Shown here: positions 459 through 61,535 of the stretch, piece by piece
Layout of the letters: each line of letters starts with the position of its first letter
Position numbering within the stretch: the stretch's first letter is position 1
Source of the DNA: Muribaculaceae bacterium
GTDB lineage: Bacteria > Bacteroidota > Bacteroidia > Bacteroidales > Muribaculaceae
NCBI GenBank assembly: GCA_009775265.1
Contig: VSPG01000004.1
Location: 42,901-106,900 of the forward strand
DNA length: 64,000 bases
Reading direction: 5' to 3'
The notes under the pieces: model-generated
The model's input: only the letters and a program-made list of their open reading frames with translations
What the model was told of the DNA's origin: nothing
Database searches by the model: none
Translations under genes and position numbers: made by a program

Positions 459-499
459 GTAATTTAGAACTCGGATAGTTTGTCTAAAAATTACAATAA

Positions 500-37750: not shown

Positions 37751-37775
37751 TGCAGTTTTTTTTAAGAAAATAAAA

Positions 37776-37818
37776 GCGGGCTTAAGGACTTTACAATCCT
37801 TGAAGTCCTTAAGCCCGC
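37776..37818 (-). terminator. Strong intrinsic terminator after xylA: perfect 16-bp stem plus U-tract
   Basis: GCGGGCTTAAGGACTT (37776-37791) pairs perfectly with AAGTCCTTAAGCCCGC (37803-37818) around an 11-nt loop. On the minus strand it is followed by TTTTATTTTCTT. Confidence 0.8.
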
Positions 37819-37833
37819 CGATGGGTTAATCGC

Positions 37834-39147: not shown

Positions 39148-39177
39148 TGGTATAATGATTTGATTGGTTATTGGTTT

Positions 39178-40653: not shown

Positions 40654-40683
40654 TGCAATATATTGTTTGATTGATTTATAACC

Positions 40684-42654: not shown

Positions 42655-42659
42655 TTATC

Positions 42660-43625: not shown

Positions 43626-44770
43626 TTATGCTTATGGTAATTGACAAGGTTCTTCAAGAAAGGTTTCATCTCATAATTGCGGTCGAACAGCAAAGGATAG
43701 TCGTGGCGGCCACGCACCGGGAAGCCGTTTTTCCAGGAATTTCCATCAGTAACACCCCATGCCGTAACACGGTTGATGACGTCGGAATGGCGCAGGAAAA
43801 GGCTAAAGAATGCGTCCATACGGCTATTCCAATGGGCGGAGACGTCTTCAGGAAGCGCATCCGGATAGGGATTGAGGGCTTTTTGGTATGCTGCGACATC
43901 GCCAACGTTGGACGAGCGGGAGAACGTGGGGAGCGCGCTCATGTCCCATTCGGTTATCATCACCTTACAGCCGGTGGCGGCAAAAGCGTTCAGAGCATCT
44001 TCGAATTCGCGGAAATCGGGATAGTCCATACCCATGTGGGCCTGCATGCCGACAGCGTCGATGCGCAGACCACGGCGTTTTAGATCCTGCACCATGCGCA
44101 CCACGCCGTCACGTCGTCCGGGCACATTCATACCGTAGTCATTGTAGTACAACTCTGCTTCGGGATCTGCCTCGTGGGCATACTGAAATGCAAGAGGAAT
44201 GAATTCCTCGCCAAGGATTTTGTAAAATCCGCTGTTGCGGTATTTTCCGCTTTCCACAATGGCTTCATTCACTACATCCCAGCCCTTAACACGGCCTTTG
44301 TAACGTCCTACGACTGCGTGGATATGGTCGCGCATGCGCGCTTTGAGAGTGTCGGCGCTCACATATTTGCCCTCATCGTCATAAAGAAACCACGGGGCAA
44401 GCTGGCTGTGCCATATCAGGCAGTGGCCGATCACCGTCATGCCGTTGCGTTCGGCAAACTCCACGAAAGCGTCGGCGTCGTCCCAATGGTAGCGGTTCTT
44501 CTCCGGATGTATTTCCGAACACTTCATCACGTTTTCCGCAACCACCGTGTTGAAGTGGTGTTTTACTATTGCGGCGCCTTCTTTATCGATTTCTTTTGCC
44601 TGGGCATCGTTAATGGCTACTGCCACACGGAACTTGTCGCCGAATACGTCTTTGAGGGCGGGTTCGGATGTCGCGGGGACTGCTGCTGACGCACCAAGCG
44701 ATGCTGCTGCAATCACGAGCAGGCTGAAAGTATGTTTCATATCGTTTTTCAATTGGGTTAGATTTATCAA
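43622..44770 (-). CDS. GH10 endo-1,4-beta-xylanase
   Basis: 382-aa ORF with the acid/base motif WDVVNEA and the nucleophile motif ITEWDM. A signal peptide follows the alternative Met11 ([19 protein letters not shown]), so the true start may be 44740. Confidence 0.88.
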
Positions 44771-46183: not shown

Positions 46184-46195
46184 TGATTTATAGGT

Positions 46196-47833
46196 TTATT
46201 TCTTCAGAAGGGATGGCAACACGGCCTCTGCGGCACGACGCCCGAGTGTCTTTTTGTCGAGTGGATGAATATCGTTCCATTCGCCAAGGTCGCTGTTGCG
46301 CACCAACGAGGCATTCGGCACCTGCTCCGCCACCTTAGCCTGCTCGGCACGCATTTCCGCCCAAGCCCTGCGGCCGGACGAATCGGACTGGTGCAGGAAA
46401 TCGGCAAGCTCGATTATATAGAAAGGCATGTCCGGACGTCCGAACCCTTTACGCCAGTCGGCTATCATGGCAGTAAGCTGGCGGGCATATTCCCTGCGGC
46501 TTCCGACATTGGACTCGCCTTGATACCACAATGCACCGGCTACAGGCACTCGGAACAGCGGAGCTATCATGGAGTTGTAAAGCACCACGGGGGTGTAGTG
46601 ATAGAACTGCATGCCGGGGCCGGAGGGCATACGCGCACCCACTCGGTGCCGCCACGTGCCTTCAAGCGACATCTCGCTGCCGTCGGCAAAGATCATTTTA
46701 TATGGCTTCTCAAGCACGAACTGCGGACGTCCACCTGAACTGATGCCGCGCACAGTGACCACATTGTCGCCTTCGCGCAACACACCTTCGGGCACTTTAT
46801 ATATACGCGGGGGATATTGGTAGCCCACAGTGCCTACAAATGTGCCGTTGACGAATGCAGAGTCGGCACCTTCAAAACACCCGAGACGCAGCGTAGCGGC
46901 ACCGGCCGCCTGCGAGGCGTTCAGAGTAATGTGGCGGCGTAGCCAGTGCGAGCCGTTGACATTCCGGCCGCTCTTCAAGTCCTGCCCCCATGCGCTTTCA
47001 AGCAAGTCAACCTCTGTCCAGTCGCTGTCGTCGAGAGCCGGGTCGTTCCACTGAACGGATGCCTGACGTCCGGGGTCGGTGGCATATAGCACGGCATTCC
47101 AGCGGGCGAAATTCTCTCCCTCAAGTTTTTTTATGCGGGAACGGTAGCCATCGTCTTCGTATATTTTTTTCTTGGCCAGTAAAACAGGCCATTCCGTCAT
47201 GCTTTCCTCGCTCATCCACGCCTCGACTGGGGTACCTCCCCAACTCGCATTGACGATGCCCACAGGCACACCCGTGGCGGCGTTCACTTCTTTAGCGAAA
47301 AAATAGGCAAGAGCCGAGAAATTCATCACATTATCCTGAGTGCACGGACGCCATGACGAAGGCGCCGTATCATCCTGCGGGCCATGGAATGCCGTAGTCT
47401 GAGGAACCACATACTGACGTATCGACGGATTTTCGTAGGCCGCTATCTCATCGGCGAACATATCGGTGACACGCCGCACCGGCAATTCCATATTCGACTG
47501 CCCGGAGCAGAGGAATACATCGCCGCTGAGCACGTCGGAAAGAGTGATGTCATTGACGTTTATCACATACGGGCCTCCGGCCTTGAGAGCCGGAAGTTCC
47601 AGTTCCCAACGTCCGAGACTGTCGGCCACCGCCTTGACCTCCTTGGACTTTTTCATATTCACTTTTGCCGTGATGCTTTCGCCCGGCTCGGCCGTGCCCC
47701 ACAGGCGCACAGGCTCTCCGCGCTGCACCACCATGCCGTCGGTGAGTATCGCAGGCAGTTTCACGCGCGCCTCCATTCCCTGAAAAGCGAGAATTGCTGT
47801 AGCGGCCAGAATATAACGGAAACTATTTTTCAT
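46196..47833 (-). CDS. SASA/SGNH-type carbohydrate O-acetylesterase (sialate-O-acetylesterase-like), probable acetyl-xylan esterase
   Basis: 545-aa ORF with a signal peptide, the catalytic-Ser motif LCSGQSNME and a WYQGESN motif. Confidence 0.8.
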   Translation of the reverse strand: MKNSFRYILAATAILAFQGMEARVKLPAILTDGMVVQRGEPVRLWGTAEPGESITAKVNMKKSKEVKAVADSLGRWELELPALKAGGPYVINVNDITLSDVLSGDVFLCSGQSNMELPVRRVTDMFADEIAAYENPSIRQYVVPQTTAFHGPQDDTAPSSWRPCTQDNVMNFSALAYFFAKEVNAATGVPVGIVNASWGGTPVEAWMSEESMTEWPVLLAKKKIYEDDGYRSRIKKLEGENFARWNAVLYATDPGRQASVQWNDPALDDSDWTEVDLLESAWGQDLKSGRNVNGSHWLRRHITLNASQAAGAATLRLGCFEGADSAFVNGTFVGTVGYQYPPRIYKVPEGVLREGDNVVTVRGISSGGRPQFVLEKPYKMIFADGSEMSLEGTWRHRVGARMPSGPGMQFYHYTPVVLYNSMIAPLFRVPVAGALWYQGESNVGSRREYARQLTAMIADWRKGFGRPDMPFYIIELADFLHQSDSSGRRAWAEMRAEQAKVAEQVPNASLVRNSDLGEWNDIHPLDKKTLGRRAAEAVLPSLLKK

Positions 47834-47840
47834 GGTATGT

Positions 47841-49532
47841 CTATCTGTAATTGTAAGTCTTTATATGAAGAATCTTATGGTCGTCCACTCCTATACGTGC
47901 ATGGCGCCCCTGATGCGTCTCATCCCCGTTGAATGTGCGCACGCGGCTGAACGTGCCATCGGGGTTCACAGCCACTTCCTCCACTTTGGCAAGTCCCGTC
48001 CGTAGAGTCGACGCGGCTTCTCCACCATTTACACGGTCGGCGCCGGCATTCAAAAAGCCGTCTTCACCCAGGCGCGCCGAAGATGACCTTTCACTCTCAT
48101 GCTCGAACTTGGCCACTATGCCCGTTCCGGCAAGGATGTACTCTCCTTCGCCAAGTTTCATGAGTATGCCTCCCGTTTCAGGCCACGTACTGCCGTCTTT
48201 TGCCCTCGGGTCCCAAGGCAATGTGAAGTAGTGCGAAAGTGTGATGCGCGTGTGCCCGTCCGTAATCACATGCTCGGGATTTTCAGAACTGAGCATCACA
48301 GCATCCATGGCATCGCTGCCGTTATAGCGTGCGATGAGCGGAGTGAGTTCACGCAAAACCGAATAAGCGGCTACCACCGGGCTGTCGGGCGAATCGCTGC
48401 CGCCCTCGATGGAAAACGGGCTTATGCCTATGGCGTCATGATGGCCGAGAACATAATAAGCCTGCGCGGCATTGGCATCGCTGCGGCGTACCTCCGGCAC
48501 GAACAGCACATTGTCCGGCAATGCGTATTGCGCCACCCAGTCGGCAAAGCCGCTGTCGTAAATGTCAGGCGAAAGGAAATCGATGGTTGGAGCCGCCGCA
48601 TGCCATATGTCCTTAAGATGGGCGAGCGGACCGGCCGAAGGATACTCGCCGGGGCGGCGTCCGCGGCTGTTCATGGCGGCGTTCACATACAGCGGCATTT
48701 CCGTCATTTCACGGGCTGCCAAAGCAAGCGCCTCGACATAGAGTGCATAGTTCCATGCCATGAAATACTCATCGGTGTAGCGGTCGTCGCCGAACACCTC
48801 CGTCCATGAACCGGAACGGCGGCCGCCCGCCTCTGTCCATTTTTTCAACAGCGAAGGGTGCAGACTTTTTTTGTTTTTGACAAGATAAGCCATAAGTTCT
48901 TCCGGCACACCGCGCCGGAAAGCAGCCTCGGCAAGCGGCGAATGGTCGCGCGCATCCTCAAGCATTCCTATCTCGTTTTCAATCTGCACCATTATCACCG
49001 TATTGTCGCTGTCGCGCTCCACCACATGCTTCAGCCAGCGGCTGAATGCACGGCGGTCGGCATCAAGAACTTCTTCGGAGAAAGCCGACGCTATTTCAAG
49101 AGGCTTGCCCGATGCTGTGCGGGCACGTGGAAAACGGCGGGTATCCGTCTTGAACCACTCGGGTGCATAGCAGCTCATTGAGTTTTTCCATACGCCGAAC
49201 CACAGAAACACCACTTTCAGCCCGTTGCGACGCGCCTCATCCATGACCTTGTCGGTAAGCGCGAAATCGAATTCACCTTCCTGCGGCTCTGTGAGCTCCC
49301 AATACGCCGGCACAAGCACCGTGTTGAGATTCATTCGGGCAAGTTTCGGGAAAATGCGTTCTATATCCGCATCGCATGTGGCCGAAGAATTGCCCAGTTC
49401 GCCGCCGAGCACGACAAACGGCTTGCCGTCCACCATAAGGCGGCCCGCAGCACCGTTGCGTTCAAGACGCACGCCTGCCACAGCCGCAAAAGCGATGGCA
49501 ATGGTTGCGAAAGCGACAATGATTCGGTTCAT
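47841..49532 (-). CDS. GH35/GH42-like TIM-barrel glycosidase with C-terminal beta-sandwich (DUF5597-type); substrate unknown
   Basis: 563-aa ORF with a signal peptide, an N-terminus GGELGNSSA...PAYWELTEPQEGEFDF and an IENE motif (VQIENEIG), as in clan GH-A beta-galactosidase-like proteins. Confidence 0.65.
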   Translation of the reverse strand: MNRIIVAFATIAIAFAAVAGVRLERNGAAGRLMVDGKPFVVLGGELGNSSATCDADIERIFPKLARMNLNTVLVPAYWELTEPQEGEFDFALTDKVMDEARRNGLKVVFLWFGVWKNSMSCYAPEWFKTDTRRFPRARTASGKPLEIASAFSEEVLDADRRAFSRWLKHVVERDSDNTVIMVQIENEIGMLEDARDHSPLAEAAFRRGVPEELMAYLVKNKKSLHPSLLKKWTEAGGRRSGSWTEVFGDDRYTDEYFMAWNYALYVEALALAAREMTEMPLYVNAAMNSRGRRPGEYPSAGPLAHLKDIWHAAAPTIDFLSPDIYDSGFADWVAQYALPDNVLFVPEVRRSDANAAQAYYVLGHHDAIGISPFSIEGGSDSPDSPVVAAYSVLRELTPLIARYNGSDAMDAVMLSSENPEHVITDGHTRITLSHYFTLPWDPRAKDGSTWPETGGILMKLGEGEYILAGTGIVAKFEHESERSSSARLGEDGFLNAGADRVNGGEAASTLRTGLAKVEEVAVNPDGTFSRVRTFNGDETHQGRHARIGVDDHKILHIKTYNYR

Positions 49533-49557: not shown

Positions 49558-49624
49558 CAAATTTAGTTCATATATTCATATGGCAGACAAACGAACGTAA
49601 CATATTTTGATTACAATGTAACAT
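49558..49624 (-). promoter_or_regulatory. Activator-type promoter of the GH35-like...xylA operon: two direct repeats, -33 box and -7 box
   Basis: Minus strand 49624->49558 reads ATGTTACA-N13-ATGTTACG-N4-TTTG-N22-TAAATTTG, with the ATG 25 nt downstream. The distal repeat lies inside the last codons of the GH115 gene. Confidence 0.5.
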
Positions 49625-52175
49625 CCGTCTTGCCATACGGAGTCTCGTCCATGAAAAGGTATGATGGTTCGTAGCCGCCGAAATCAACTATGATTTTTTC
49701 AAACACGATGCCGGGAACCATAGGACGCAGCGTCAGAGCATGTAGTGTGCCGGCGCCAAGAGGCATCCGCACTACTTTCTCGACAACACGACGCGCCACG
49801 GTGGGATAAAACACCGTATAAATGTTGGCCGGTTCCTCATTCAGATCGGAATTAAAATTCACCTCCACCGGAGCGCTGCCGTCAAGCTCCACTTCATAGC
49901 AGTGGCCGCCGGCGTTAAGGAAATCAAGCGTAGATTTCACTACCACCCGTACGTCTACAGAATCGACGCCTACTGCATCGGGCGCGGAAATGCTGTATGT
50001 AAGACTCCCTCCGTCGACAGGCACATCATACGGCATGAGTGCCACGCCCGACAGCGTGCGGCCCATGTCCGGCACCACTGCCCATTCCGCCGACGCCGCC
50101 GGCACAGCCTTGTTGAAATGCTCGGCCTCAATCACTGCCACGCCTTTGCGGACATGCGACACATATCCGCCCGATGTGCGGGAGCGGTCGGCCACACGGC
50201 GCAGCTCGGGACAGCGGTCGGCAGGGAAGTCATCGTTCCAATTCCTGTACCCTATATGCTTCTGTGTCATCATTCCACGCCACTTTCCGCCGGCCAGCTT
50301 ATTATTATATGTATCCGACAGTTCCGAATCGCGACGGAAACAGCGTTCCGCACGATCGGCCCATTCGTCGGCCACGGGGTCGCCGGCTGCGTGCAGCTTA
50401 TGGTTCATCGCCTGCGCATAGTACATCTCGTAGAGGTTCGACATCGCCTGCACAGGGTATAGTATCAGTTCGAAATAAGCGTCGCGATGGCTCTCTGGCA
50501 GAGCAAGATACTGGCGCAGAGCCTCAGCCTCGAGACGGGCATATTCGTCAGCCACACGGCGCCATTCGCCGTTGTCCACATTGTAGGTACGGGCATCAAG
50601 CATTTCTGGCGTGACCCGTCCGTTGTATTTGCTGTACAGATTCAATATGCGTGCCGCCTCGTCTGCATGCTCATCGCCAAAGATTTCTCGGCAGAATTCC
50701 AAGGTATGTTCCATGAAATTACCGGCTTCATACTGCTTGGGGTTCCATGCCATGTCAAGAAAGAGTGTAATAGGATATTCCATTGGCTTAAGATCGCCTA
50801 CGTTCAACACCCAAAGGCGGTCCACACCATAGTCGTAAGTGAGGCGCAGCTGCTCCCACATGCCCTGTATAGGTGTCACGTTCAGCCATTTGCTGTTGCG
50901 CGGAGCGCCAACATAGTCCACATGGTAATACATACCCCACCCTCCCGGATGGCGGCGTTCGTTCTCATCCGGCAAGCGGCGCACATTGCCCCAGTTGTCG
51001 TCGCACACAAGCATTATCACATCGTCAGGCACACGCAGACCTTTGTCGTAATAGTCAAGGACTTCTTTGTACAGTGCCCACACCTGCGGGGTTTTATCTG
51101 CCTTGCGGCCTGTTTCTTTGGCTATTATTCTGCGTTGGTTTTTTATCACTTTTTCAAGCAGAGCCACGTCGGCTTCCTCGCTCATGGCTTCGTCGCCGTC
51201 GCCACGCATGCCTATGGTTATGATGTCCTCCGTATCTTTCGCACGCCTTATGCCTTCACGGAAAAATTCGTCTATAACCTTGCTGTTGGTGGCATAATTC
51301 CATTTGCCATACTTTCGTCGGTTGCGCGCCCATTCCTGATGGTTGCGCGCCATGGGCTCGTGGTGCGAAGTGCCCATGATCACGCCCATGGCATCGGCAG
51401 TTGCGCTGTTCTCGGGGTCGTCGGCGTAAAACGACCACGACCACATGGCGGGCCACATAAAGTTGCCACGCAAACGCAGGATGAGTTCGAACACTCGGGC
51501 ATAGAACTCGTGGTTGCCATAGTCTGTGCCATACGTGTTCTTTACCCATCCGGTAAGACACGGAGCCTCGTCGTTGAGGAATATGCCGCGATATTCCACA
51601 GCAGGCTCGCCCGCAGTATAGCGCCCGCGCTCTATCGACACGTCCGCATGCCGCGCCACCGGGGCGTCGGCCCAGTCATACCACGGCGACACCCCTATCT
51701 GCTCCGATAGCTCATAGATGCCGTATACAGTGCCGCGCCGGTCGCTGCCGGCCACCACAAGAGCCTCGTCCACTCCCGGAGCCGGATTGCGCACCGTCGT
51801 GATTATGTATTGCTCATTTTTACCGTCAAGTTCCGACAAATCGACAATTCCACCCTTTACAAGGGGGCGGAGAGTCGGACCGTCAAACGCGCCTGCAATT
51901 ATGATACGCGAAGCCTCGCCCGGAACCGCTCCAAGCAGCCGTGCATCCGTGCCTCCGACACGACCGAAATCGGCCGCGAGCGAGGATGCAGCGATACGCA
52001 CCGCCGAATTTTCTCCGTCGTTCACAACTATCGACGTCGGATTTCCTTGCTCTATAAGCGTAAATCGCTCCGGCGAAAGCGAGTGATGGGTGATGCCTTT
52101 ATGATCTATCGCATCAGCCGATAATACGGACAGGGCAGCAATCGCCCAACAGAAAAACCGGAGTTGTTTTTTCAT
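49611..52175 (-). CDS. GH115 xylan alpha-1,2-glucuronidase
   Basis: 854-aa ORF with a signal peptide, the GH115-typical motif MGTSHHEPM and its surrounding region. Confidence 0.85.
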   Translation of the reverse strand: MKKQLRFFCWAIAALSVLSADAIDHKGITHHSLSPERFTLIEQGNPTSIVVNDGENSAVRIAASSLAADFGRVGGTDARLLGAVPGEASRIIIAGAFDGPTLRPLVKGGIVDLSELDGKNEQYIITTVRNPAPGVDEALVVAGSDRRGTVYGIYELSEQIGVSPWYDWADAPVARHADVSIERGRYTAGEPAVEYRGIFLNDEAPCLTGWVKNTYGTDYGNHEFYARVFELILRLRGNFMWPAMWSWSFYADDPENSATADAMGVIMGTSHHEPMARNHQEWARNRRKYGKWNYATNSKVIDEFFREGIRRAKDTEDIITIGMRGDGDEAMSEEADVALLEKVIKNQRRIIAKETGRKADKTPQVWALYKEVLDYYDKGLRVPDDVIMLVCDDNWGNVRRLPDENERRHPGGWGMYYHVDYVGAPRNSKWLNVTPIQGMWEQLRLTYDYGVDRLWVLNVGDLKPMEYPITLFLDMAWNPKQYEAGNFMEHTLEFCREIFGDEHADEAARILNLYSKYNGRVTPEMLDARTYNVDNGEWRRVADEYARLEAEALRQYLALPESHRDAYFELILYPVQAMSNLYEMYYAQAMNHKLHAAGDPVADEWADRAERCFRRDSELSDTYNNKLAGGKWRGMMTQKHIGYRNWNDDFPADRCPELRRVADRSRTSGGYVSHVRKGVAVIEAEHFNKAVPAASAEWAVVPDMGRTLSGVALMPYDVPVDGGSLTYSISAPDAVGVDSVDVRVVVKSTLDFLNAGGHCYEVELDGSAPVEVNFNSDLNEEPANIYTVFYPTVARRVVEKVVRMPLGAGTLHALTLRPMVPGIVFEKIIVDFGGYEPSYLFMDETPYGKTDVTL

Positions 52176-52213
52176 GGATTATAATCGTGTTGCGTGGATT
52201 TATTTTATAATTG

Positions 52214-52280
52214 CAAAGATATAAAATAGCATTTTATTGTACCGAATCGGACGTTACGCATCCTGTCGGCTACGTAACAT
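52214..52280 (-). promoter_or_regulatory. Activator-type promoter of the GH115 gene: two direct repeats, -33-like box and -7 box
   Basis: Minus strand 52280->52214 reads ATGTTACG-N13-GCGTAACG-N5-TTCG-N21-TATCTTTG, with the ATG 38 nt downstream. Confidence 0.5.
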
Positions 52281-52346
52281 TGTTAAATAACATATATAAA
52301 ATCGATAATTATTATGTCATATTTTGTTAGAAACATTTAATAAACG

Positions 52347-52354
52347 TAACTTTG
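52347..52354 (+). promoter_or_regulatory. Candidate -7 box TAACTTTG for the HTCS gene
   Basis: Exact TAnnTTTG match, 21 nt before the ATG at 52376. It lies inside the N-terminal extension of the track ORF (52352), which argues for the 52376 start. Confidence 0.45.
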
Positions 52355-52375
52355 CGTTACATTTGTCACATCGCC

Positions 52376-55300
52376 ATGAAAAACTTACGGAAATTGCGTC
52401 TCTTATTGTTCCTGGCTATTGCCACCTGCACCGCCGCGACCGCGTCCGGACAGGCCATTCGCATGTTCAATGCCGACGACAACCTCTCCAGCAGCCTTAT
52501 CAACCAGCTCTACCAGGACCGCAACGGAATCATGTGGATAGCCACCGAAGACGGCCTCAACCGCTACGACGGCAATAAATTCACCTCCTACCGCCACATC
52601 CCCAACGACAGCACATCGTTGTGCAACAATTTCGTAAAATCGCTTTTCGAGGATAGTGACGGGCAGTTGTATGTATGCACACGCCGTGGCTTGCAGATCT
52701 ATGACCCGGCAACAGACCGCTTCTTGCCACGCCTGCGGCGCGACTCGGGCAAAGGGTTCAACTTCTCCATCAACCATGTGATAAAACGCAGCGACAACGA
52801 GTACTGGACAATCGGCGACTCGCTCGTGCGCTTCGCCCCGGGCAAGAGAACCGTGTCCGACGCCACTACGGCCGACGAGCTCTCAGCTACGCTACGCAAT
52901 GCCCATTGTGCCATTGTAGACACCGAAAAACACGTATGGGTCTCAAACGGCTCAGAACTCTACCGTGTGGCTCCCGACAACAGCATGCGCCATTATTTCG
53001 GCAAGAAAGACGACCCGGTGGTCTCATCCATGGCAATAGGACGCGACGGGCTGCTCTACATCGGCACCACCAGCAAGGGGCTTATGCGATTCAACCGCGA
53101 CCGTGACAGTTTTGAAAGCCTTACGCCGGGAATTTCAAAAGAGATCAAAGCGCTTTTCTCCGACAGCAACGGCGACATCATACAAGCCATAGACGGAGAC
53201 GGCATAACCTTCTACACTCCCGCCACAGGCACCAACCGCAAATTCCGCTTCAGCCACAACAAACTGGGTCCTGACAGGCAAAAGGCCCACACCGTACTGC
53301 GCGACGCCGACGGCAACATATGGACAGGGATATACCAGTCCGGAATTGTCCTGATGCCCGGACAATCAAATTCTTTCGGCTATATAGGCTATAAATCCGA
53401 ACGCTACGATGTCATAGGCAAAAACTGCGTGTCAGCCATATGCCGGAGCCATGACGGAAACCTGTGGGTGGGTTCCGACAACGACGGCATCTACAGCCTT
53501 AACGACGACATGAGCCTGCAGCGCCACTACTACTCCGACGAAATAGCTTCGCCCATGTGCATTTTCGAAGACAGCCGTGGCGAAATATGGGTAGGCACCT
53601 ACCTGCACGGCGTCGGCACCCTCGACCGCAGCACAGGAAACATGCGGCGGCTCGACATATCCGACAACAGCAGGCATCCCGGCAACGTGTGCTTCGCCAT
53701 CACCGAAGACCGAGACCACAACGTATGGCTCGGCATGCTCAACTCCGGACTCGTGAAATACGACATTAAAACCGGCCGCGTAATCAAAGACTTCTCGTGG
53801 CGCGACAAAATAGACCTGTGGATAGCTTCGCTATATTACTCTCCCAAAACCAATTCTCTATATATCGGAAGCTACTCCGGCTTGCAGGTAGTGGACAACG
53901 TATCGCTGGCCGAGCCGGGGATAAACACATTTTTCACCGACGACGTGGTGTATTCCATCGACGAAGGGCCGGACGGATGCATATGGCTCGCAACCACAAA
54001 CGGGATAATCCGCTTCAACCCCACCGACGGCAGCAGCCGGCGCTACACAATGGCCGACGGCCTCCACAGCACCACCGCCTACGCGATACGCCACGACGGA
54101 CACCATATATGGATAAGCCTGAATTCCGGGCTAACAAGATTCGACCCCGCAACGGAAACGTTCTCAAACTTCCTCGTAAGCGACGGCCTGCAGGGCAACG
54201 AATTCTACAAAAACTCGGCTTTCAAAGCTCCGGACGGGCGATTGTATTTCGGCGGCATAGGAGGCATAACCCACTTCAATCCTCGCGACATTGCATCTCC
54301 GGGGCGGAAATGGGCACCGCGCGTGGCGGGGTTCTACCTCCACGGCGCGCCGGCATCGGTAGGCACGCCGGTCTATGAGGCTTCCGAATTCAGGCTCGAG
54401 CCGGACGAAGACTCCTTCTCCATAGAGTTCGGCACACGCCAGCTCGGCCGCCCTGAATCAGTGCTTTTCGCCTACGCCATTGACGACAAGGCATGGGAAA
54501 CACTGCCCGCCGGCACGAACATAGTAAATTTCCACCGACTCGAGCCCGGCAAACACACCCTCCGCTTCAAAACCGTCGACAACCTGACCGAATCCGAAGT
54601 GAAGACACTAAGCATAGCAGTAGCCCACCCGTGGTACGCCACGGCATGGGCAAAAGCGCTTTATGCCGCAGCCGCACTCCTCCTTGCCGTGTGGGCGGCA
54701 TACAGCTACGCCGCACGCCTGCGACACCGCACGGAACTGCTCAACCTCACCCATGCCGAACAAATCAACGAAGCACGCCTGCAGTCGTTCGTCAACATGT
54801 CGCACGAGATACGCACACCCATGTCGCTCGTGATAAGCCCCCTGCAAAAACTTCTCGCCACCGACACCGACCCTTCTCGCCGCCACGAATACGGACTCAT
54901 ACTGCGCAACGCCAAACGCATCCTGCGACACATCGACGAACTCATGGACCTGCGGAAAATCGAGAAACGACAGATGCGCCTGTCGCTCCGGCGCACGCAG
55001 CTCGTGCCTTTCATCGACGACATTTGCGAGACATTCGCCCAGGTAATGGCAGGAAAGAACATCGCGTTCAGTTTCAACTACGATTCGTCGGACACATCCG
55101 CGTGCATCGACGCCGCCAATTTTGACAAAATCATGATGAACCTGCTCTCCAACGCCGTAAAATACACCCCCGAAGGCGGCCGCATCAGCATCGACCTCGA
55201 ACGCACGCCCGACGACATGGTGCGCATCGCTGTCACCGACACCGGCATAGGAGTGCCCGACAAAGACAAGCAGCGCATATTCGACCGCTTCTACCAGGCC

Positions 55301-56365
55301 CACGGCAACACTGCCGGCGGCACAGGCGTGGGACTTCACCTCACCCAGCAGCTCGTGGCACTGCACCACGGCACAATCGTAGCCACCGACAACCCCGACG
55401 GAAACGAAGGCACACGCTTCATCGTCACCATACCCGCCGGACAGGAAGACATCGGGGAAAGCGACGCCGCATCTACGGCCATCCCCGGAGCCCGGCCCAC
55501 ACGCCACGGCCTCCCCTTCAACGACCCCAAGAGCCTGCTCGTGCCCGACATAGACGAATCGCCGGCGGAGACCGCCCACCAGCAGGCCGAACGCGTACTC
55601 ATAGTAGAAGACGACGAGGAAATACGCAGCTATCTCAGACACGAACTGTCGGCAAAATACCGCGTGAGCTGCTGTACAGGCGGGCGGGAAGCTCTCGATA
55701 CCATATTCCGGCAGGCGCCGGACCTGATAGTGAGCGACATAATGATGCCCGAAATGGATGGCATATGCCTCACACGCACCATCAAGCAGAACATCAACCT
55801 CAACCACATCCCCGTGATACTCGTCACCGCCATGTCGCGCGACGAAGACAACATCGCAGCCATCGAGGCCGGCGCCGACGACTTCGTGACAAAACCCTTC
55901 AACATAGAGATTCTCAAATCGAAAATATCAGGCCTGCTCACACGCTACCGGCTGCTCAAAAACCGCTACAGCGGCAGCCAGGAACACGACGACAAGATAG
56001 ACAAGATAAGCGTGGAGTCCAATGACGAAAAACTCATGAAACGAATAATGGCCGTGATAAACCGCGAAATGGCCAACCCCGACCTCACAGTCGAACTGCT
56101 CGCATCGGAAGTGGGTCTCAGCCGCGTCCATCTGCACCGACGCCTCAAAGCACTCACCAACCAGTCGCCGCGCGACTTCATACGCAACACCCGCCTGCGC
56201 CAGGCCGCCACTCTGCTCAGCGAGAAACGCCTGAGCGTGGCGGAAGTATCGGACCTCACAGGGTTCAGCAATGCAGGCAGCTTCACGACCGCGTTCAAGC
56301 GCCTTTTCGGCACCACTCCGAGCGAATACGCCGAAAATAAAGCAGAAGCATCGATAAACAACTAA
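52376..56365 (+). CDS. Hybrid two-component system sensor kinase/response regulator with AraC-type HTH (XynR-like HTCS)
   Basis: About 1329 aa from MKNLRKLRLLLFLAIA (signal/TM). Domains in order: periplasmic beta-propeller repeats, a TM helix, the HisKA H-box SHEIRTPM, the HATPase motifs DTGIGVP and GTGVGLHL, a receiver domain (LIVEDDEE...DLIVSDIMMPEMDG) and an AraC HTH (GFSNAGSFTTAFKRLFGTTPSEY). Confidence 0.92.
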   Translation: MKNLRKLRLLLFLAIATCTAATASGQAIRMFNADDNLSSSLINQLYQDRNGIMWIATEDGLNRYDGNKFTSYRHIPNDSTSLCNNFVKSLFEDSDGQLYVCTRRGLQIYDPATDRFLPRLRRDSGKGFNFSINHVIKRSDNEYWTIGDSLVRFAPGKRTVSDATTADELSATLRNAHCAIVDTEKHVWVSNGSELYRVAPDNSMRHYFGKKDDPVVSSMAIGRDGLLYIGTTSKGLMRFNRDRDSFESLTPGISKEIKALFSDSNGDIIQAIDGDGITFYTPATGTNRKFRFSHNKLGPDRQKAHTVLRDADGNIWTGIYQSGIVLMPGQSNSFGYIGYKSERYDVIGKNCVSAICRSHDGNLWVGSDNDGIYSLNDDMSLQRHYYSDEIASPMCIFEDSRGEIWVGTYLHGVGTLDRSTGNMRRLDISDNSRHPGNVCFAITEDRDHNVWLGMLNSGLVKYDIKTGRVIKDFSWRDKIDLWIASLYYSPKTNSLYIGSYSGLQVVDNVSLAEPGINTFFTDDVVYSIDEGPDGCIWLATTNGIIRFNPTDGSSRRYTMADGLHSTTAYAIRHDGHHIWISLNSGLTRFDPATETFSNFLVSDGLQGNEFYKNSAFKAPDGRLYFGGIGGITHFNPRDIASPGRKWAPRVAGFYLHGAPASVGTPVYEASEFRLEPDEDSFSIEFGTRQLGRPESVLFAYAIDDKAWETLPAGTNIVNFHRLEPGKHTLRFKTVDNLTESEVKTLSIAVAHPWYATAWAKALYAAAALLLAVWAAYSYAARLRHRTELLNLTHAEQINEARLQSFVNMSHEIRTPMSLVISPLQKLLATDTDPSRRHEYGLILRNAKRILRHIDELMDLRKIEKRQMRLSLRRTQLVPFIDDICETFAQVMAGKNIAFSFNYDSSDTSACIDAANFDKIMMNLLSNAVKYTPEGGRISIDLERTPDDMVRIAVTDTGIGVPDKDKQRIFDRFYQAHGNTAGGTGVGLHLTQQLVALHHGTIVATDNPDGNEGTRFIVTIPAGQEDIGESDAASTAIPGARPTRHGLPFNDPKSLLVPDIDESPAETAHQQAERVLIVEDDEEIRSYLRHELSAKYRVSCCTGGREALDTIFRQAPDLIVSDIMMPEMDGICLTRTIKQNINLNHIPVILVTAMSRDEDNIAAIEAGADDFVTKPFNIEILKSKISGLLTRYRLLKNRYSGSQEHDDKIDKISVESNDEKLMKRIMAVINREMANPDLTVELLASEVGLSRVHLHRRLKALTNQSPRDFIRNTRLRQAATLLSEKRLSVAEVSDLTGFSNAGSFTTAFKRLFGTTPSEYAENKAEASINN

Positions 56366-56440
56366 TAATCAGACTACATGTAACGCCGGACTGTATTAAT
56401 GAAACAAATAAATGTCCGATTTAACACTTAACGGACAACA

Positions 56441-56507
56441 ATGTTACACATTCTCAAACATCAGTAACGTACAATTTGTTAAAATTCGTTCCGTCTGCCT
56501 AATTTTG
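56441..56507 (+). promoter_or_regulatory. Activator-type promoter of the GH43-susC-susD operon: two direct repeats, -33 box and -7 box
   Basis: Plus strand reads ATGTTACA (56441-56448), N13, CAGTAACG (56462-56469), N5, TTTG (56475-56478), N21, TAATTTTG (56500-56507). The ATG is 41 nt downstream. Confidence 0.55.
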
Positions 56508-56548: not shown

Positions 56549-58261
56549 ATGAAAAAGACTATGGCAATAGCCGCAGCAGCCCTCGCCCTGAGCGCATGCA
56601 CAGCCAACCGGACAACACCAGAGGCGCAGCCCGGCACAGCCGTATTCGGCAGCTTCCTTTACGAAGGAAGCGATAGTGTATACACTATCAGTCCGCTTGC
56701 GGACAACGCCGCATTCCACAACCCGATTCTCCCCGGATGGTATTCCGACCCCTCTGTCTGCACCAACGGCAAGGGCGATTACTTCCTCGTCACATCCACA
56801 TTCTGCTACTTTCCCGGAGTTCCGCTGTTCCATAGCCGCGACATGGTGAACTGGAGGCAAATCGGCCATGTGCTCAACCGCGAGTCCCAACTCGACAATT
56901 TCCCCGGACAGCACATAAGCGGCGGCATCTTCGCGCCCGCCATAAGCTACAATCCGGCCAACGGAATGTACTACATGATCACGACTAACGTCGGCGCCGG
57001 AAACTTCTTCGTGAAAACTTCCGACCCCTTCTCGGGTCAGTGGAGCGACCCCGTCTACCTGCCCGAAGTGCAGGGCATAGACCCCGCATTCTTCTTCGAC
57101 ACCGACGGCAAGGCCTATATCGTGAACAACGACGACGCCCCCGACGGCAAACCCGAGTACGACGGGCACCGCACAGTGCGCGTGGTGGAATTCGACATCG
57201 AATCCGAAAAATGCGTTGGCGAGCGCAAAATAGTCGTCAACAAAGGCTGGCGCCCGCAGGACAAACCCATATGGTGCGAAGGACCGCACATTTATAATGT
57301 GGACGGGCAGTACTACCTCATGACAGCCGAAGGAGGCACAGCCGAGGGCCACAGCGAAGTCATCTACCGCGGCACCTCGCCCTTCGGCCCCTTCACGCCC
57401 TACAAAAACAACCCCATCCTGACACAGCGCAACCTCGACCGCAATCGCCCCAACCCCGTCACCTGCGCCGGCCACGCCGACCTCGTACAGACAGCCGAAG
57501 GCGACTGGTGGGCCGTGTTCCTCGCATGCCGCCCCAACAAAGCCGGATTCGAGAACCTCGGCCGCGAAACATTCATGCTCCCCGTGGAGTGGACAGAAGA
57601 CGGATGGCCGATAATCCTCGCCGACAAGCAGCCCGTGCCCATGGCCGGCACACGCGCCGGCGTAGTGCGCGACGAAGCGCGCACCACATTCGGCAACTTC
57701 AGCATAACAGAAGAATTCGACAGCACATCCCTCGCCCCCGAATGGATGACCCTGCGCTCCCCGGCCACCGAGCTTTACTCACTTTCCGACAATCCCGGCA
57801 GCCTTACGCTGAAATGCGCCGACACCGACGTGCGAGAGAAATCCACCCCCGCATTCATCGCACGCCGCATCCAGCACCACAGTTTCAAGTGCAGCGCGCC
57901 CATGACGTTCGTGCCCGACAGTGCCTCGCAGTGCGCCGGGCTGCTCCTGTTCAAGGACGAAGCACACCACTATCTGTTCGCACGCGGCATCGACTCCGAA
58001 GGCAACCACGTCGTGTTCGTCGACAAGACAAGCCCCGAAGGCACGGAAACAATCGCCTCCGTACCCGTAGAAGCATCCGAAAACACCGTCACACTCACCA
58101 TAAGCAGCGCCGACGGCCTGAGCTATGATTTCAGCATGACAGGCACCGACGGCAGAAGCACCGTAGTGGCCGAAGGCGTAGACGCGCGCCACACATCCAC
58201 CGCTGCCGCCGGCGGATTCACCGGCACCACAGTAGGCCCCTACGCCACAAACCGCAGATAA
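56549..58261 (+). CDS. GH43 beta-xylosidase/arabinofuranosidase with C-terminal beta-sandwich domain, lipoprotein signal
   Basis: 570-aa ORF with a lipobox (LALSACT). It has the catalytic motifs WYSDPSV, GGIFAPAI and CEGPHIY and a C-terminal concanavalin-like domain, as in XynB-type GH43 enzymes. Confidence 0.88.
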   Translation: MKKTMAIAAAALALSACTANRTTPEAQPGTAVFGSFLYEGSDSVYTISPLADNAAFHNPILPGWYSDPSVCTNGKGDYFLVTSTFCYFPGVPLFHSRDMVNWRQIGHVLNRESQLDNFPGQHISGGIFAPAISYNPANGMYYMITTNVGAGNFFVKTSDPFSGQWSDPVYLPEVQGIDPAFFFDTDGKAYIVNNDDAPDGKPEYDGHRTVRVVEFDIESEKCVGERKIVVNKGWRPQDKPIWCEGPHIYNVDGQYYLMTAEGGTAEGHSEVIYRGTSPFGPFTPYKNNPILTQRNLDRNRPNPVTCAGHADLVQTAEGDWWAVFLACRPNKAGFENLGRETFMLPVEWTEDGWPIILADKQPVPMAGTRAGVVRDEARTTFGNFSITEEFDSTSLAPEWMTLRSPATELYSLSDNPGSLTLKCADTDVREKSTPAFIARRIQHHSFKCSAPMTFVPDSASQCAGLLLFKDEAHHYLFARGIDSEGNHVVFVDKTSPEGTETIASVPVEASENTVTLTISSADGLSYDFSMTGTDGRSTVVAEGVDARHTSTAAAGGFTGTTVGPYATNRR

Positions 58262-58405
58262 CAAACACTCATATAATTAATAATTCACTTAAACCAAAAC
58301 CGACAATAAGAAACAGAAAAACCAGGAAAAACCATTTACCTGCCTTGAAAAGGCAAAATTGAAAACACATTAAAAATAACCTGAACCAAAACCAATCACC
58401 AACAA

Positions 58406-61400
58406 ATGGAAAATGTAAAGAAATTGTTTCGTTGCATTTCAGTTCTGACACTGATGATGGTCTGCGGAGCCTTCACGGCTTACGCCGCCACAGTGTCCGG
58501 TACTGTGGTCGACGATACGGGCGAGCCCCTTATCGGCGTCAGCGTAACGCTCAAGGGCAACAATGCAGGCGTGACAACGGACATCGACGGTAATTATACC
58601 ATACAGGTGCCCGATGCAAAGACCGCCACGCTCACATTCAGCTACGTGGGCATGGAATCACAGGAAATCAAAATCAACGGACGTAGCAAAGTCGACGTTA
58701 CCCTCAAGCCCAACAGCAATGCTCTTGAGGAAGTCGTGGTTGTAGGCTACGGCCATCAGAAAAAAGCATCCGTAGTGGGCGCCATCACCCAGACATCCGG
58801 TGCCGTGCTCGAACGCGCTGCCGGTATCCATGACATCGGCAACGCCCTTACCGGTAACATGCCCGGCGTCGTGACGACCCAGAGCAGCGGTATGCCCGGC
58901 GACGAAGAACCCCAGATCACCATCCGCGGCGCTTCCTCCTGGAACAACAGCTCGCCCCTGGTGCTCGTCGATGGTATCGAACGCCCCATGAGCTCCGTCG
59001 ACATCAGCTCCGTCGAGTCCATCTCCGCACTCAAGGACGCATCGGCCACCGCAGTCTATGGTGTGAAAGGCGCCAACGGCGTAATTCTCATCACCACCAA
59101 ACGCGGTCAGGAAGGCAAGGCCAAAATCGACGTAGGCTTCACCTCCACAATGAAAACCATATCCAAGCTTCCTGACAAGTACGACTCCTACGACGCAATG
59201 CTCCTGCACAACCGCGTCATCGAGCACGAACTCGCCCTCAGCCCCACCTCCTGGAGCTACATCGTGCCCATGGACCGCGTGAACAAGTACCGCTACCGCA
59301 CATCCATAGAGGACATCGAGCGTTACCCCAACGTGGACTGGCGCAACGAGCTGTTCAAGGACGCAGCAATGAGCTATAACGCTTATGTCAACATCGCCGG
59401 CGGCACCAAGTTCGTGCGCTACTACACCGCAGTCGACTTCGTGAGCGAAGGCGACCTTTTCCGTAGCTTCGACGCAGGTCGCGGATTCCGCAGCGGCTTC
59501 GACTACAACCGCCTCAACGTGCGCAGCAACCTCGACTTCTCCATCACAAAGACTACTACTTTCAAGGTGAACGTGGCAGGCTCCAACGGCTCGCGCAAAA
59601 CCCCCTACAACGGATCCGGTTTCTACAGCGTGGACTGGTCGGCAGCACAGATCTGGGGCTCGGTCTACAGCACAGCTCCCGACATCTTCATGCCCCGATA
59701 CAGCGACGGCTCGCTCGGATTCTACCCGCTCAACGCCGCCCAGACCACCAACTCCGTGGCCAATATCATGACAGCCGGCACCATGCGCATGACAAATACG
59801 CGCATCAACACCGACTTCGTACTTGAGCAGGACCTCTCGATGATTACCAAAGGCCTCAACTTCCGCGGCATGATTTCCTGGGACAACCTCTTCGTGGAAG
59901 GCAAGCGCGGCATCGAGGACACTTCAGCCTACGTGTTCAAATACATCGACCCCGCAACCGGCGAAGTCACCAATCGTAACGACTACGACCAGACTACCGG
60001 CTTCGACTACCGCACACAGTCCAACCTCGCGCTGCGTGCAGGCGAAGTGGCCAACTGGAAGACACAGCGCCACGTCAACTACCAGCTCCAGCTCAACTGG
60101 GCTCGCGAGTTCGGCAAGCACTCCGTAAGCGCCACAGGCGTATGGAGCCGCCAGGAAGACGCCTACGGCAGCGAAATCCCCCGCTACCGTGAAGACTGGG
60201 TGTTCCGTACCACCTACGACTTCGACGGACGCTACCTCGTGGAATACAACGGCGCCTACAACGGCTCCGAGAAATTCGGCAAAGGCTACCGCTTCGGTTT
60301 CTTCAACTCGGGCGCTATCGGATGGCGCATCAGCGGCGAACCGTTCTTCAAGCCCCTGCTGCCCTACATCAACAACCTCAAGCTCCGCGCCTCCTACGGC
60401 GAAATCGGCGACGACTCCGGCGACCGCTGGCTGTACACCGACACCTGGGGCTTCGGCGGCAACGCAATCGTCGACGGCTCCGCCAAACCCGGCAACACCA
60501 GCCCTTACTCCTTCTACTACCAGAGCACCATCGGCAACCCCGACGCACACTGGGAAAAGGTGACGAAGTTCAACTTCGGTATCGACTACGGATTCCTCAA
60601 CGACATGTTCGCCGGCGCCGTGGAAATATTCAAGGACAAACGTAAAGACATCCTCATCCGCGGCACCGACCGTTCCATCCCCAGCTACTTCGGCGGCAAC
60701 CCGCCCACAGCCAACCTCGGCCGTGCCGAAGCATCCGGCTTCGAAGTGGAACTCCGCTTCAATTATCCCATCAACCGCGACATGCGCACATGGGCCAACT
60801 TCAGCATGACCCACGCATCCAACAAAATCATCGACCGTGACGACCCCCGCCTGCGTCCCGACTACCAGAAACAGGCAGGCTACGCCATCGGCCAGTACCA
60901 TTCGCACATCGATGCCGGATTCCTCAACAACTACGACATGATCTACGGCGCCCCCGCCTTCGAAACCAACGACGACCAGCGCCTCCCCGGCGACTACTAC
61001 ATCGTCGACTTCAACGGCGACGGCGTAGTCAACGCCGACGACTCCGCGCCCTACGGCTACACCGAAACTCCTCAGAACACCTACAACGCCACCCTCGGCT
61101 TCGAATGGAAAGGCCTCAGCGTGTTCGCACAGTTCTACGGCGTAACAGGCGTATCGCGTACAGTAGACCTCCGCAGCTTCGAAAACCAGATGAACAACGC
61201 CTACGACCTGCACCGCGACTGGTGGAGCGCCGACGGCAGCGGCGACATGCTCGTGCCCCGCTGGCTCAGCACACCCTACTCTGCGCAGTACGGCACACAG
61301 TGGATCTACGACGCATCCTACATCCGTCTCAAGAACGTCGAAGTGGCCTACACCTGGAACTCCGGCTGGATCAAGAAACTCGGCCTGAGCAACCTCAAGG

Positions 61401-61531: not shown

Positions 61532-61535
61532 TCAC

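Follow-up and report, generated by a model that had tools for sequence, protein, structure and literature searches.

The window, i.e., the whole 64-kb stretch of DNA that was analysed, originates from the mouse-gut bacterium Paramuribaculum intestinale and contains a xylan-digesting gene cluster, where three promoters carry pairs of GTTAC-type repeats in a 21-bp register. The HTCS gene of the cluster (52376..56365, plus strand), assigned from Pfam matches, sequence and orthologues, encodes the proposed trans-acting factor. Pfam analysis of its product revealed a Reg_prop beta-propeller sensor, HisKA, HATPase_c and Response_reg receiver domains, and the AraC-type domains HTH_18 and HTH_AraC. 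The initial annotation had named an HTCS with an AraC-type HTH as the only regulator of this polysaccharide-utilisation locus (PUL). The HTCS start is TTG 52352 in the ORF list; the ATG at 52376 comes after the gene's own -7 box TAACTTTG (52347-52354).

On the minus strand, the Pfam-assigned GH115 alpha-glucuronidase gene (49611..52175) is the predicted target of operator 2, and the operon predicted to be under operator 1 (37834..49532) comprises a GH35/42-like gene with DUF5597, a SASA esterase, an MFS_2 transporter, GH10, GH43, GH67, xylB and xylA, with intergenic gaps of 0-30 bp. Past xylA, an intrinsic terminator (37767..37818, minus strand) is formed by a 16-bp stem followed by UUUUAUUUU; its folding energy is -31.1 kcal/mol (z = -6.0), and 0/200 shuffles folded equally well. 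It was found by folding, the loop limit of the terminator scan being too short for it. On the plus strand, the operon predicted to be under operator 3 (56549..63506) encodes a GH43 beta-xylosidase, a SusC-like and a SusD-like protein and extends past these genes; in the 144-bp gap between GH43 and susC, neither a -7 box nor an operator was found. Three transcription units had originally been proposed, of which the one from the GH35-like gene to xylA is borne out by the strong terminator past xylA, whereas GH115 does not appear to stand alone. The 78-bp gap 3' of GH115 contains the next promoter and no terminator, and read-through of GH115 transcripts into the GH35-like operon is therefore likely. 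A sigma-70 promoter scan was set aside, since its model is irrelevant to Bacteroidota promoters.

Repeats, N13 spacers and -7 boxes of the three sites were found exactly as they had been described. Operator 1, at the promoter of the GH35-like operon (49596..49624, minus strand), reads ATGTTACA-N13-ATGTTACG, with the half-sites at 49624-49617 and 49603-49596, respectively, and is followed by the -7 box TAAATTTG (49558..49565, minus strand). Its distal half-site overlaps the 3' codons of GH115 (GAT GTT ACA = D V T; stop 49613-49611). Operator 2, at the GH115 promoter (52252..52280, minus strand), reads ATGTTACG-N13-GCGTAACG (half-sites 52280-52273 and 52259-52252), and its -7 box is TATCTTTG (52214..52221, minus strand). 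Operator 3, at the GH43-susC-susD promoter (56441..56469, plus strand), reads ATGTTACA-N13-CAGTAACG (half-sites 56441-56448 and 56462-56469), with the -7 box TAATTTTG at 56500..56507 on the plus strand. At all three promoters, the -7 box lies 30 nt past the proximal 8-mer.

The longer pattern ATGTTAC-N16-GTWACG matched the 64-kb window three times, with 0.00 matches expected, and the core pair GTWAC-N16-GTWAC likewise gave three matches against 0.13 expected, every one of them at a promoter; no more than one core-pair match was obtained in each of 100 shuffles. Occurrence of the three sites by chance is excluded. The word GTWACG alone showed no enrichment in the window, with 29 copies against 52 expected, so the signal lies in pairing and position rather than in the word itself. 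Across unrelated Bacteroidota HTCS loci totalling 1.49 Mb, where a similar density would have spoken against the proposal, the core pair was found 11 times, corresponding to 0.47 per 64 kb.

A position weight matrix (PWM) scan was run on the window using a matrix trained on 13 orthologous sites only, with the window's own sites left out. Among the 128,000 window positions scored, the three sites ranked first, with 30.2 for operator 1, the window maximum, 25.4 for operator 3 and 22.4 for operator 2; the next match scored 13.1, and the mean was -38.5 (sd 10.7). Following both PWM scan and sequence inspection, the other promoters of the window, including the geometry of the HTCS gene's own promoter, were found to be without the motif, which is, thus, not a general promoter element. 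The GTAAC/GTTAC copies at 52345-52360 were considered as extra half-sites and were not counted as operators, since their spacing (71 and 81 bp) breaks the register and the -7 box of the HTCS gene overlaps with them. A weak site was noted at 21947, before the L-arabinose operon of the galM-araDAB type. Rfam searches at the gathering threshold gave no match in the three site regions, the only match in the window being FopS at 395-460.

The fourth-ranking PWM match is a distal auxiliary element (56378..56406, plus strand, but of ambiguous orientation, its score of 13.1 being obtained on the minus-strand reading) with the sequence ATGTAACG-N13-ATGAAACA. Positioned 13 bp past the HTCS stop codon and 63 bp (3 x 21) ahead of operator 3, it had escaped the first reading of the sequence. 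Among the orthologous loci, it is kept in the identical 63-bp register in L082 and L083, and in L081 the aligned sequence retains the TGTTACGC half-site only.

Conservation upstream of orthologous genes, which had been set as a check, was assessed on 16 equivalent promoters from six xylan loci of Muribaculaceae that are syntenic with the window locus and encode HTCSs of 54-70% identity. The distal TGTTAC was present in 16/16 promoters, and the proximal GTWAC followed exactly 21 bp on in all of them, with its G, T, A and C each found in 16/16. A TAAnTTTG-like -7 box was located at +57/+58, i.e., 30-31 nt past the proximal repeat, again in every promoter, so that a -7 box of the Bacteroidota primary-sigma type (TAnnTTTG) stands upstream of the genes in 16/16 cases. 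The spacers were not conserved among the orthologous promoters, and those of the three window copies were dissimilar as well; islands of conservation were confined to the repeats and their geometry. Operator 1 is conserved in L081-L083, L085 and L086, operator 2 in L081-L083, and operator 3 in L081-L083 as well as at the susC promoter of L085 and L086. The latter two loci have neither GH115 nor GH43, and their predicted operators directly precede the GH35-like gene and susC; the operator sites, as judged from sequence, follow their genes when the locus layout changes. In loci L081-L087, every core-pair match falls in a promoter region. At lower HTCS identity (46%), L087 contains three half-sites in the 21-bp register before its GH10 operon. 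L089 has a perfect ATGTTACA-N13-ATGTTACA adjoining its HTCS gene. In L088, L090 and L091 (41-44% identity), no repeat pair was found in the 21-24 kb of each locus, their xylan susC promoters lying outside that DNA; one susC promoter region of L090 was without a repeat pair.

The repeats had initially been described as abutting a -33 box. While TTTG or TTCG (+31 to +35) is indeed present at the three window sites, it is absent from that position in the orthologous promoters, where no conserved -33 TTTG was found at the canonical distance. The expression 'abutting the -33 box' is, therefore, only approximately meaningful. About 30 nt separate the end of the proximal 8-mer from the -7 box, and the A-rich patch found at +12 to +14 has a weak echo at +33 to +35, a hint that the 21-bp unit may reach into the -33 region, as would be expected for the class II layout of AraC/XylS-type activators.

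In a metagenome-wide scan, for which the repeat pair combined with the -7 box served as the pattern, at least 120 loci were retrieved, of which 99 distinct loci were analysed. The matches were mostly at polysaccharide-utilisation promoters, many of them xylan-related, and the genes downstream encoded SusC-type receptors, GH10, GH43, GH115, GH3, GH31 and esterases, with xylan-type genes in 22/99 distinct loci. An HTCS gene had its 3' end within 500 bp of the motif in 11/99, and among the loci listed, six carried a paralogous HTCS gene ending 29-37 bp before the motif. As an internal control of the scan, the free positions of the pattern were inspected and found to be strongly non-random (+5 A, 70/102; +20 T, 73/102; +26 A, 76/102).

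Covariation with the DNA-binding domain (DBD) was analysed on 80 loci of HTCS paralogues with at most 35% identity, which also served as background and were obtained by a contig search with back-translated peptides (SHEIRTPM and the MMP motif) that are generic to histidine kinases and receivers. DBD identity was higher in motif-bearing loci (Mann-Whitney p = 0.010). The helix-3 signature SR.[QH]LHR[KR], defined post hoc after inspection of the data, was present in 11/15 motif-adjacent versus 6/39 motif-less paralogues (Fisher p = 1e-4); when the unbiased subset was taken by itself, the difference (3/6 versus 6/39) was not significant (p = 0.08). The core residues S, R, H, L, H and R of the signature were invariant in 29/29 xylan-HTCS orthologues, down to 39% identity. 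The identical core motif adjoins HTCS paralogues with DBDs 32-46% identical to that of the window HTCS and also occurs before non-xylan PUL genes; hence, the core alone cannot explain HTCS specificity.

Taken together, the footprint over 16 promoters, the association of the motif with PUL promoters and HTCS genes in metagenomes, the helix-3 covariation and the layout of published HTCS motifs back the original proposal, and the three sites are most likely operators of the AraC-type HTCS of the locus, positioned to activate three promoters. We infer that the window HTCS binds the three sites physically and that it would activate rather than repress; the transcription start sites of the three promoters are predicted ones, and a xylan oligosaccharide is the presumed signal. 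According to the proposed mechanism, xylan oligosaccharides would be bound by the periplasmic beta-propeller sensor, leading to autophosphorylation of the HTCS and phosphotransfer to the receiver domain of the same polypeptide, which would set the AraC-type DBDs free. The two DBDs of a membrane-anchored homodimer would occupy the two GTTAC-type half-sites, in direct orientation and 21 bp apart, and both on one DNA face, as 21 bp equal two helical turns. With a start of transcription 5-7 nt past the -7 box, the 30-31 nt offset would place the centres of the cores near -47 and -68, and from there the dimer could recruit RNA polymerase to promoters that have no conserved -33 element. GH115, the operon from the GH35-like gene to xylA and the GH43-susC-susD operon would, in this way, be switched on together.

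The repeats might instead be bound by another widely conserved regulator encoded elsewhere, for example a Cur/BT4338-type global carbohydrate regulator or a PUL co-factor, given that the TGTTACA-type architecture precedes many non-xylan PUL genes in diverse metagenomes and is found beside HTCSs with quite divergent DBDs. We regard this as unlikely, since motif and HTCS gene are physically linked in the 11 metagenome loci described above, often with 29-37 bp between the stop codon and the motif, and since the motif covaries with the HTCS helix-3 signature. The Cur/BT4338 site is the palindrome TATGTTnTAnAACATA (Townsend et al. 2020, PMC6989115), which likewise precedes carbohydrate-utilisation genes and has the letters ATGTT(AC) in common with the half-site, ATGTT being shared with the consensus; the fusA2 site, for which binding was shown experimentally, includes TATGTTACAT (PMC6989115). 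In contrast to the 21-bp-spaced direct repeats of the window, which have no palindromic partner, the Cur motif is 16 bp long and requires AACATA at a defined spacing, which is absent from all three sites. A Crp-like Cur/BT4338 site was, therefore, rejected for each of them; moreover, Cur sites have neither the AC that invariably follows GTT here nor direct repeats in a 21-bp register.

Positive regulation is the role generally ascribed to xylan HTCSs, among them XynR of Prevotella bryantii. That the sites are HTCS operators at which the HTCS represses or fine-tunes, as constitutively active BT4124 reportedly does, appears less probable still. Activation is not to be assumed, because BT4124, the only footprinted HTCS, repressed when constitutively activated: BT4124R-AD bound tandem half-sites and reduced the expression of its PUL genes (PMC13292587). 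The window sites, however, are placed ahead of the core promoter, with about 30 nt between the proximal 8-mer and the -7 box, and cover neither this box nor the start site; an unconserved -33 region is typical of activator-dependent promoters. Moreover, the window HTCS is the only regulator of its PUL, whereas BT4124 is a second HTCS next to the primary activator BT4111 (PMC13292587). Finally, promoter cassettes duplicated by common descent, or a generic element read by RNA polymerase itself without a dedicated regulator, are highly improbable, for although the genes gained relative to L085 and L086 (GH115 and GH43) each bring their own operator-promoter module and the -7 box is rigidly spaced, invariant cores across loci with 54-70% HTCS identity next to dissimilar spacers argue for selection on the cores and not for recent duplication.

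Operator function under the HTCS of the locus would provide a concrete candidate operator and regulon, with three promoters with predicted starts and a distal auxiliary element, for the core xylan locus of the Muribaculaceae, a dominant mouse-gut family that is genetically little studied. The rigid geometry (21 bp between repeats, 30-31 nt to the -7 box), together with the helix-3 signature, offers a simple rule for locating HTCS-activated promoters in Bacteroidota genomes and metagenomes, and could inform the design of xylan-inducible expression cassettes. Only tentatively do we propose that a TGTTACA-N14-TGTTACA pair 30-31 nt before the -7 box is a phylum-wide 'standard socket' for many paralogous HTCSs with SRxQ/HLHRK/R. 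If this were true, several PULs per genome could be wired to near-identical operators, and what decides specificity, or deliberate glycan cross-talk and prioritisation, could be the weaker positions within the 21-bp unit, additional half-sites in phase or membrane tethering; the site at 21947 could then represent cross-wiring of the L-arabinose operon to arabinoxylan catabolism.

The tandem-repeat design with 21-bp spacing is already known for the HTCS class, having been published for Bacteroides in 2013 and footprinted in 2026. For B. thetaiotaomicron, Ravcheev et al. 2013 (BMC Genomics 14:873; RegPrecise) predicted HTCS motifs by phylogenetic footprinting, which are direct repeats with a mean site distance of 21 bp and were read as the binding of a dimer on one DNA face (PMC3878776). 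As in the window, these consist of two conserved boxes in direct repeat around an unconserved spacer and precede susC and enzyme operons of the HTCS-encoding PUL; the sites described here share with them invariant cores with unconserved spacers, the 21-bp distance, the position at PUL promoters, conservation in orthologues and a cognate HTCS. The alignment of the BT1763 (fructan) promoter, reading ATGCAACA-N13-TTGAAACA about 31 nt before a -7-like box (PMC3878776), agrees with the window sites in register and lies at a comparable distance from the -7 box. In contrast to the window sites, that study covers 16 HTCSs of B. thetaiotaomicron, a species without a xylan PUL, and its supplementary alignments contain no GTTAC direct-repeat motif (PMC3878776). 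The window sites are attributed to a xylan HTCS of the Muribaculaceae, and have a (T)GTTAC(A/G) core; the present analysis documents explicitly that, at these sites and their orthologues, the -7 box follows at a rigid distance of 30-31 nt.

For BT4124, tandem half-sites were revealed by DNase footprint and EMSA (J Biol Chem 2026, PMC13292587; mBio 2024, PMC11253607), corresponding to the arrangement predicted here, with the AraC-type DBD of an HTCS on two tandem half-sites in PUL promoters. The BT4124 promoter also contains a second, previously unpredicted site, of which the element at 56378-56406 may be the counterpart. BT4124 differs in its A-rich half-site, which ends in ATAC/TTAC, in having acted as a repressor, and in the receiver latch motif, which is S/CHIP in BT4124 and NHIP in the window HTCS. 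In the AraC/XylS family (AraC I1-I2, XylS, RhaS, MelR), two directly repeated sites, each about 17-21 bp long and read by a two-HTH domain, serve activation from upstream of the core promoter and reach toward the core. The window regulator differs in being a membrane-bound hybrid kinase-regulator that would act on promoters of the Bacteroidota -33/-7 type, and overlap of its sites with the -33 region is suggested only by the weak A-rich echo. XynR of Prevotella bryantii, reportedly described by Miyazaki et al. in 2003 as a multidomain regulator of the HTCS type exerting positive control of xylanase genes, is alike by description as an HTCS-type regulator within a xylan cluster. The published HTCS architecture is extended to a new substrate class and a new family, with the picture of HTCS action unchanged.

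The region was confirmed via Pfam to be a classical xylan utilisation locus, with genes for GH115, a GH35/42-like protein with DUF5597, a SASA esterase, an MFS_2 transporter, GH10, GH43, GH67, xylB and xylA, followed by uxuA, uxuB, uxaC and an MFS transporter, on the minus strand. The hybrid two-component system regulator (HTCS; 52376-56365, +) consists of a Reg_prop sensor, HisKA, HATPase, receiver and AraC-type HTH, and a plus-strand block of GH43, SusC and SusD lies downstream of it. The xylA product has the same sequence as WP_304424238.1 from Paramuribaculum intestinale, and the closest named HTCS homologues come from Muribaculaceae. Re-reading of the sequence at the three repeat pairs described in the initial annotation, 49596-49624 (−; site 1), 52252-52280 (−; site 2) and 56441-56469 (+; site 3), gave exact agreement at all three. 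They share the layout ATGTTAC(A/G), 13 unconserved bases, nnGT(T/A)ACG, 30 bases and a Bacteroidota −7 box (TAAATTTG, TATCTTTG or TAATTTTG), each on the strand of the gene directly downstream, namely the GH35/42-like gene (47841-49532, −), GH115 (49611-52175, −) and GH43 (56549-58261, +). At site 1, the distal half-site runs into the final GH115 codons (GAT GTT ACA, Asp-Val-Thr), an overlap kept in the orthologous xylan loci L081-L083.

ATGTTAC-N16-GTWACG was found three times in the window versus 0.00 expected, and the bare core pair GTWAC-N16-GTWAC three times versus 0.13 expected, all three being these sites. Unrelated Bacteroidota HTCS loci (1.49 Mb) contained the core pair 11 times, corresponding to 0.47 per 64 kb. 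Taken singly, GTWACG was not enriched, so that the signal resides in pairing and placement.

Orthologous loci at graded divergence were obtained via exact-protein look-up. HTCS identity was 70%, 66% and 63% in L081, L082 and L083, all fully syntenic; 55% and 54% in L085 and L086, which are devoid of GH115 and of the GH43 gene and where the GH35-like operon and susC flank the HTCS directly; and 46% in L087, whose gene layout is different. The repeat pair was present at every equivalent promoter of the loci compared, and where gene order differs (L085-L087), the sites accompany the genes linked to the HTCS. In-register alignment of 16 promoters from six loci, including 13 non-window sites, revealed distal TGTTAC in 16/16, with a preceding A in 14/16, and proximal G, T, A and C each in 16/16; the central W was T in 14/16, both A cases belonging to the window. 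The −7 box starts 30 nt, sometimes 31 nt, past the proximal 8-mer, and no conserved positions were found in the 13-nt spacer and the 30-nt linker of these promoters. When a weight matrix (PWM) trained on the 13 non-window sites only was scanned over the 128,000 positions of the window (mean score −38.5, sd 10.7), the three window sites took the top ranks with scores of 30.2, 25.4 and 22.4, the next score being 13.1; phylogenetic footprinting, proposed as a check in the initial annotation, thus bears out the sites. Comparing L085 and L086 with the window and L081-L083, GH115 and GH43 are extra in the window lineage, each with its own operator-plus-promoter module; each of these genes seems to have joined (or left) the regulon as a package with its full control cassette.

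A metagenome scan with the pattern ATGTTAC-N16-GTWAC-N31/32-TAANTTTG returned at least 120 loci. Among the 102 distinct matches listed, positions left free by the pattern were strongly non-random (+5 A in 70/102, +20 T in 73/102, +26 A in 76/102), and positions +12 to +14 were rich in A, without G at +13, a pattern echoed at +33 to +35, which implies that the matches genuinely belong to a single motif family, (A)TGTTACA. Among the matches listed, the gene immediately downstream mostly encodes a SusC-type receptor, a glycoside hydrolase or an esterase, with xylan-type genes (GH10, GH115, GH67, GH43, GH35-like, xylA) at 22 of the 99 distinct loci. An HTCS 3' end was located within 500 bp of the motif at 11/99 of these listed loci (mean locus length 7.3 kb), where chance adjacency is estimated at ~1% because HTCS genes number a few dozen per ~6 Mb in gut Bacteroides (36 in B. 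thetaiotaomicron; PMC3878776). Six of the loci listed have the motif 29-37 bp past the end of a paralogous HTCS of only 25-33% identity, and this order of HTCS, operator and gene is that of the window. Thirteen of the 52 GTWAC cores seen further upstream lie at multiples of 21 bp, mostly at −21, in-phase extra half-sites being confined to a minority of promoters. On the metagenome contig L169, two full operator-plus-(−7 box) matches 220 bp apart (5141-5427, +), ahead of one SusC-type gene, are predicted tandem HTCS-type promoters.

The HTCS is, as initially stated, the sole regulator in the Pfam-annotated locus. Identity of its DNA-binding domain (DBD) to homologues was higher in loci with the pair (Mann-Whitney p = 0.010; 47 unbiased paralogue loci). 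A recognition-helix-3 signature, SR.[QH]LHR[KR], picked after data inspection, was present in 11/15 motif-adjacent versus 6/39 motif-less paralogues (Fisher p = 1e-4) and, in the unbiased subset alone, in 3/6 versus 6/39 (p = 0.08), and is thus supportive, not decisive; helix 3 of the window HTCS reads SRVHLHRR. All 29 xylan-HTCS orthologues aligned, with identities as low as 39%, share the signature core (S, R, H, L, H, R) without variation, so that xylan HTCSs of the Bacteroides and Prevotella types are predicted to recognise the same DNA core. A perfect ATGTTACA-N13-ATGTTACA was found beside the HTCS of L089, a locus from a very abundant cluster (40% identity). Supported by motif-HTCS gene association, conservation and DBD covariation, the proposal that the three window sites are HTCS operators appears quite probable. 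The REC-DBD latch motif S/CHIP occurs in ~74% of Bacteroides HTCSs (PMC13292587); the receiver of the window HTCS has NHIP at the latch position (residues ~1143-1146, LNHIPVIL), likewise the xylan-HTCS orthologue consensus, and the inhibitory REC-DBD interface of this clade may differ from the S/CHIP type.

The −33 box (TTTG/TTCG) of the initial annotation did not hold, the aligned orthologous promoters being without a conserved −33 element, as expected of activator-dependent promoters. Repression by the HTCS, as seen for the Bacteroides regulator BT4124 (PMC13292587), is a less probable alternative and fits poorly, since the sites lie wholly upstream of the −33-less core promoter and this polysaccharide-utilisation locus (PUL) has one regulator only. 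In the preferred activator model, a xylan oligosaccharide would activate the HTCS homodimer, whose two AraC-type DBDs would occupy the tandem half-sites on one helix face. In Bacteroides promoters, transcription typically starts 5-7 nt past the −7 box; with such a start, −68 and −47 would be the approximate centres of the cores. Each 21-bp unit seems to have two parts, a GTTAC box and an A-rich box ~10 bp away, which would match the pair of HTH motifs that an AraC-type domain carries. Binding by the global regulator Cur (BT4338), whose consensus TATGTTnTAnAACATA has ATGTT in common with the half-site (PMC6989115), does not fit, as the Cur site is a palindrome whose partner arm was found at 0/3 window sites, and neither the invariant AC nor the 21-bp direct register agrees with it. 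A generic promoter element or duplicated cassettes are contradicted by the completely diverged spacers and by the lack of the motif at other window promoters.

The proposed GH35-like-to-xylA transcription unit is supported by a strong terminator after xylA (−31 kcal/mol, z = −6). GH115, initially regarded as a unit of its own, is probably not stand-alone: in the 78-bp gap to the GH35-like gene, which holds a promoter, no terminator was seen by terminator scan and sequence inspection, making read-through into the GH35-like operon likely. Within 37751-37833 (−), the xylA terminator ends ~25 nt short of the uxuA start codon with no −7 box between, so that uxuA, uxuB, uxaC and MFS (glucuronate catabolism) may be expressed via partial terminator read-through or from a promoter embedded upstream of the terminator.

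From sequence, PWM and conservation, a distal auxiliary pair, ATGTAACG-N13-ATGAAACA, was recognised at 56378-56406 (+), preceding site 3 by 63 bp, or three 21-bp steps, and 13 bp past the HTCS stop codon. L082 and L083 retain the pair at the same register, with only a TGTTACGC half-site aligned there in L081, and its orientation is ambiguous because the minus-strand reading is better. The −7 box of the HTCS gene itself (TAACTTTG, 52347-52354) sits inside an inverted GTAAC-N5-GTTAC pair (CGTAACTTTGCGTTACAT; 52345-52362, +). The copies of this pair lie just before the HTCS start, overlap the box and do not keep the 21-bp register relative to operator 2; the pair may serve as a low-affinity contact for autoregulation or arise coincidentally from the sequence of the −7 box. 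In the more distant L087 (46% identity), the HTCS gene itself is preceded by a TACTTTTG box and, exactly 30 nt ahead of that box, by an inverted GTAAC-N16-GTTAC (TGTGTAACATA...TATGTTACACA; 9826-9900, +), which hints that the HTCS of this lineage regulates its own gene. A weak fourth candidate of nearly the same geometry, ATGTTACG-N13-AGGAAACA-N29-TAACTTTG (21947-22012, +; PWM score 11.4, window rank 5), has the proximal core GAAAC and an offset of 29 versus 30-31 nt. It is intergenic, ahead of an L-arabinose catabolism operon (galM, SSF transporter, araD, araA, araB), and may couple arabinose use to the sensing of arabinoxylan or be due to chance. Unrelated to the operators, 395-460 (+) matches the Bacteroidetes FopS sRNA family in Rfam (RF04319; 61.2 bits, gathering score 56).

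Neither the supplementary alignments of PMC3878776 nor hemicellulase-regulation reviews and a full-text literature search (RegPrecise being outside its scope) yielded a description of a xylan-HTCS operator or GTTAC direct repeat. The site design itself is already published: direct repeats with a non-conserved spacer and 21 bp between sites were reported in 2013 for 16 B. thetaiotaomicron HTCSs, the sites being located ahead of PUL operons and interpreted as bound by a dimer from one side of the DNA (PMC3878776). Slightly beyond the literature consulted are the rigid −7 box offset, the breadth of TGTTACA over Bacteroidota PUL promoters and the helix-3 link. The outcome is a sound and useful prediction of a regulon in an understudied gut family, holding no surprise for the specialist. 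For BT4124, tandem half-sites were footprinted in 2026, and a second, unpredicted pair was also obtained in the same promoter (PMC13292587), which resembles the auxiliary pair ahead of site 3.
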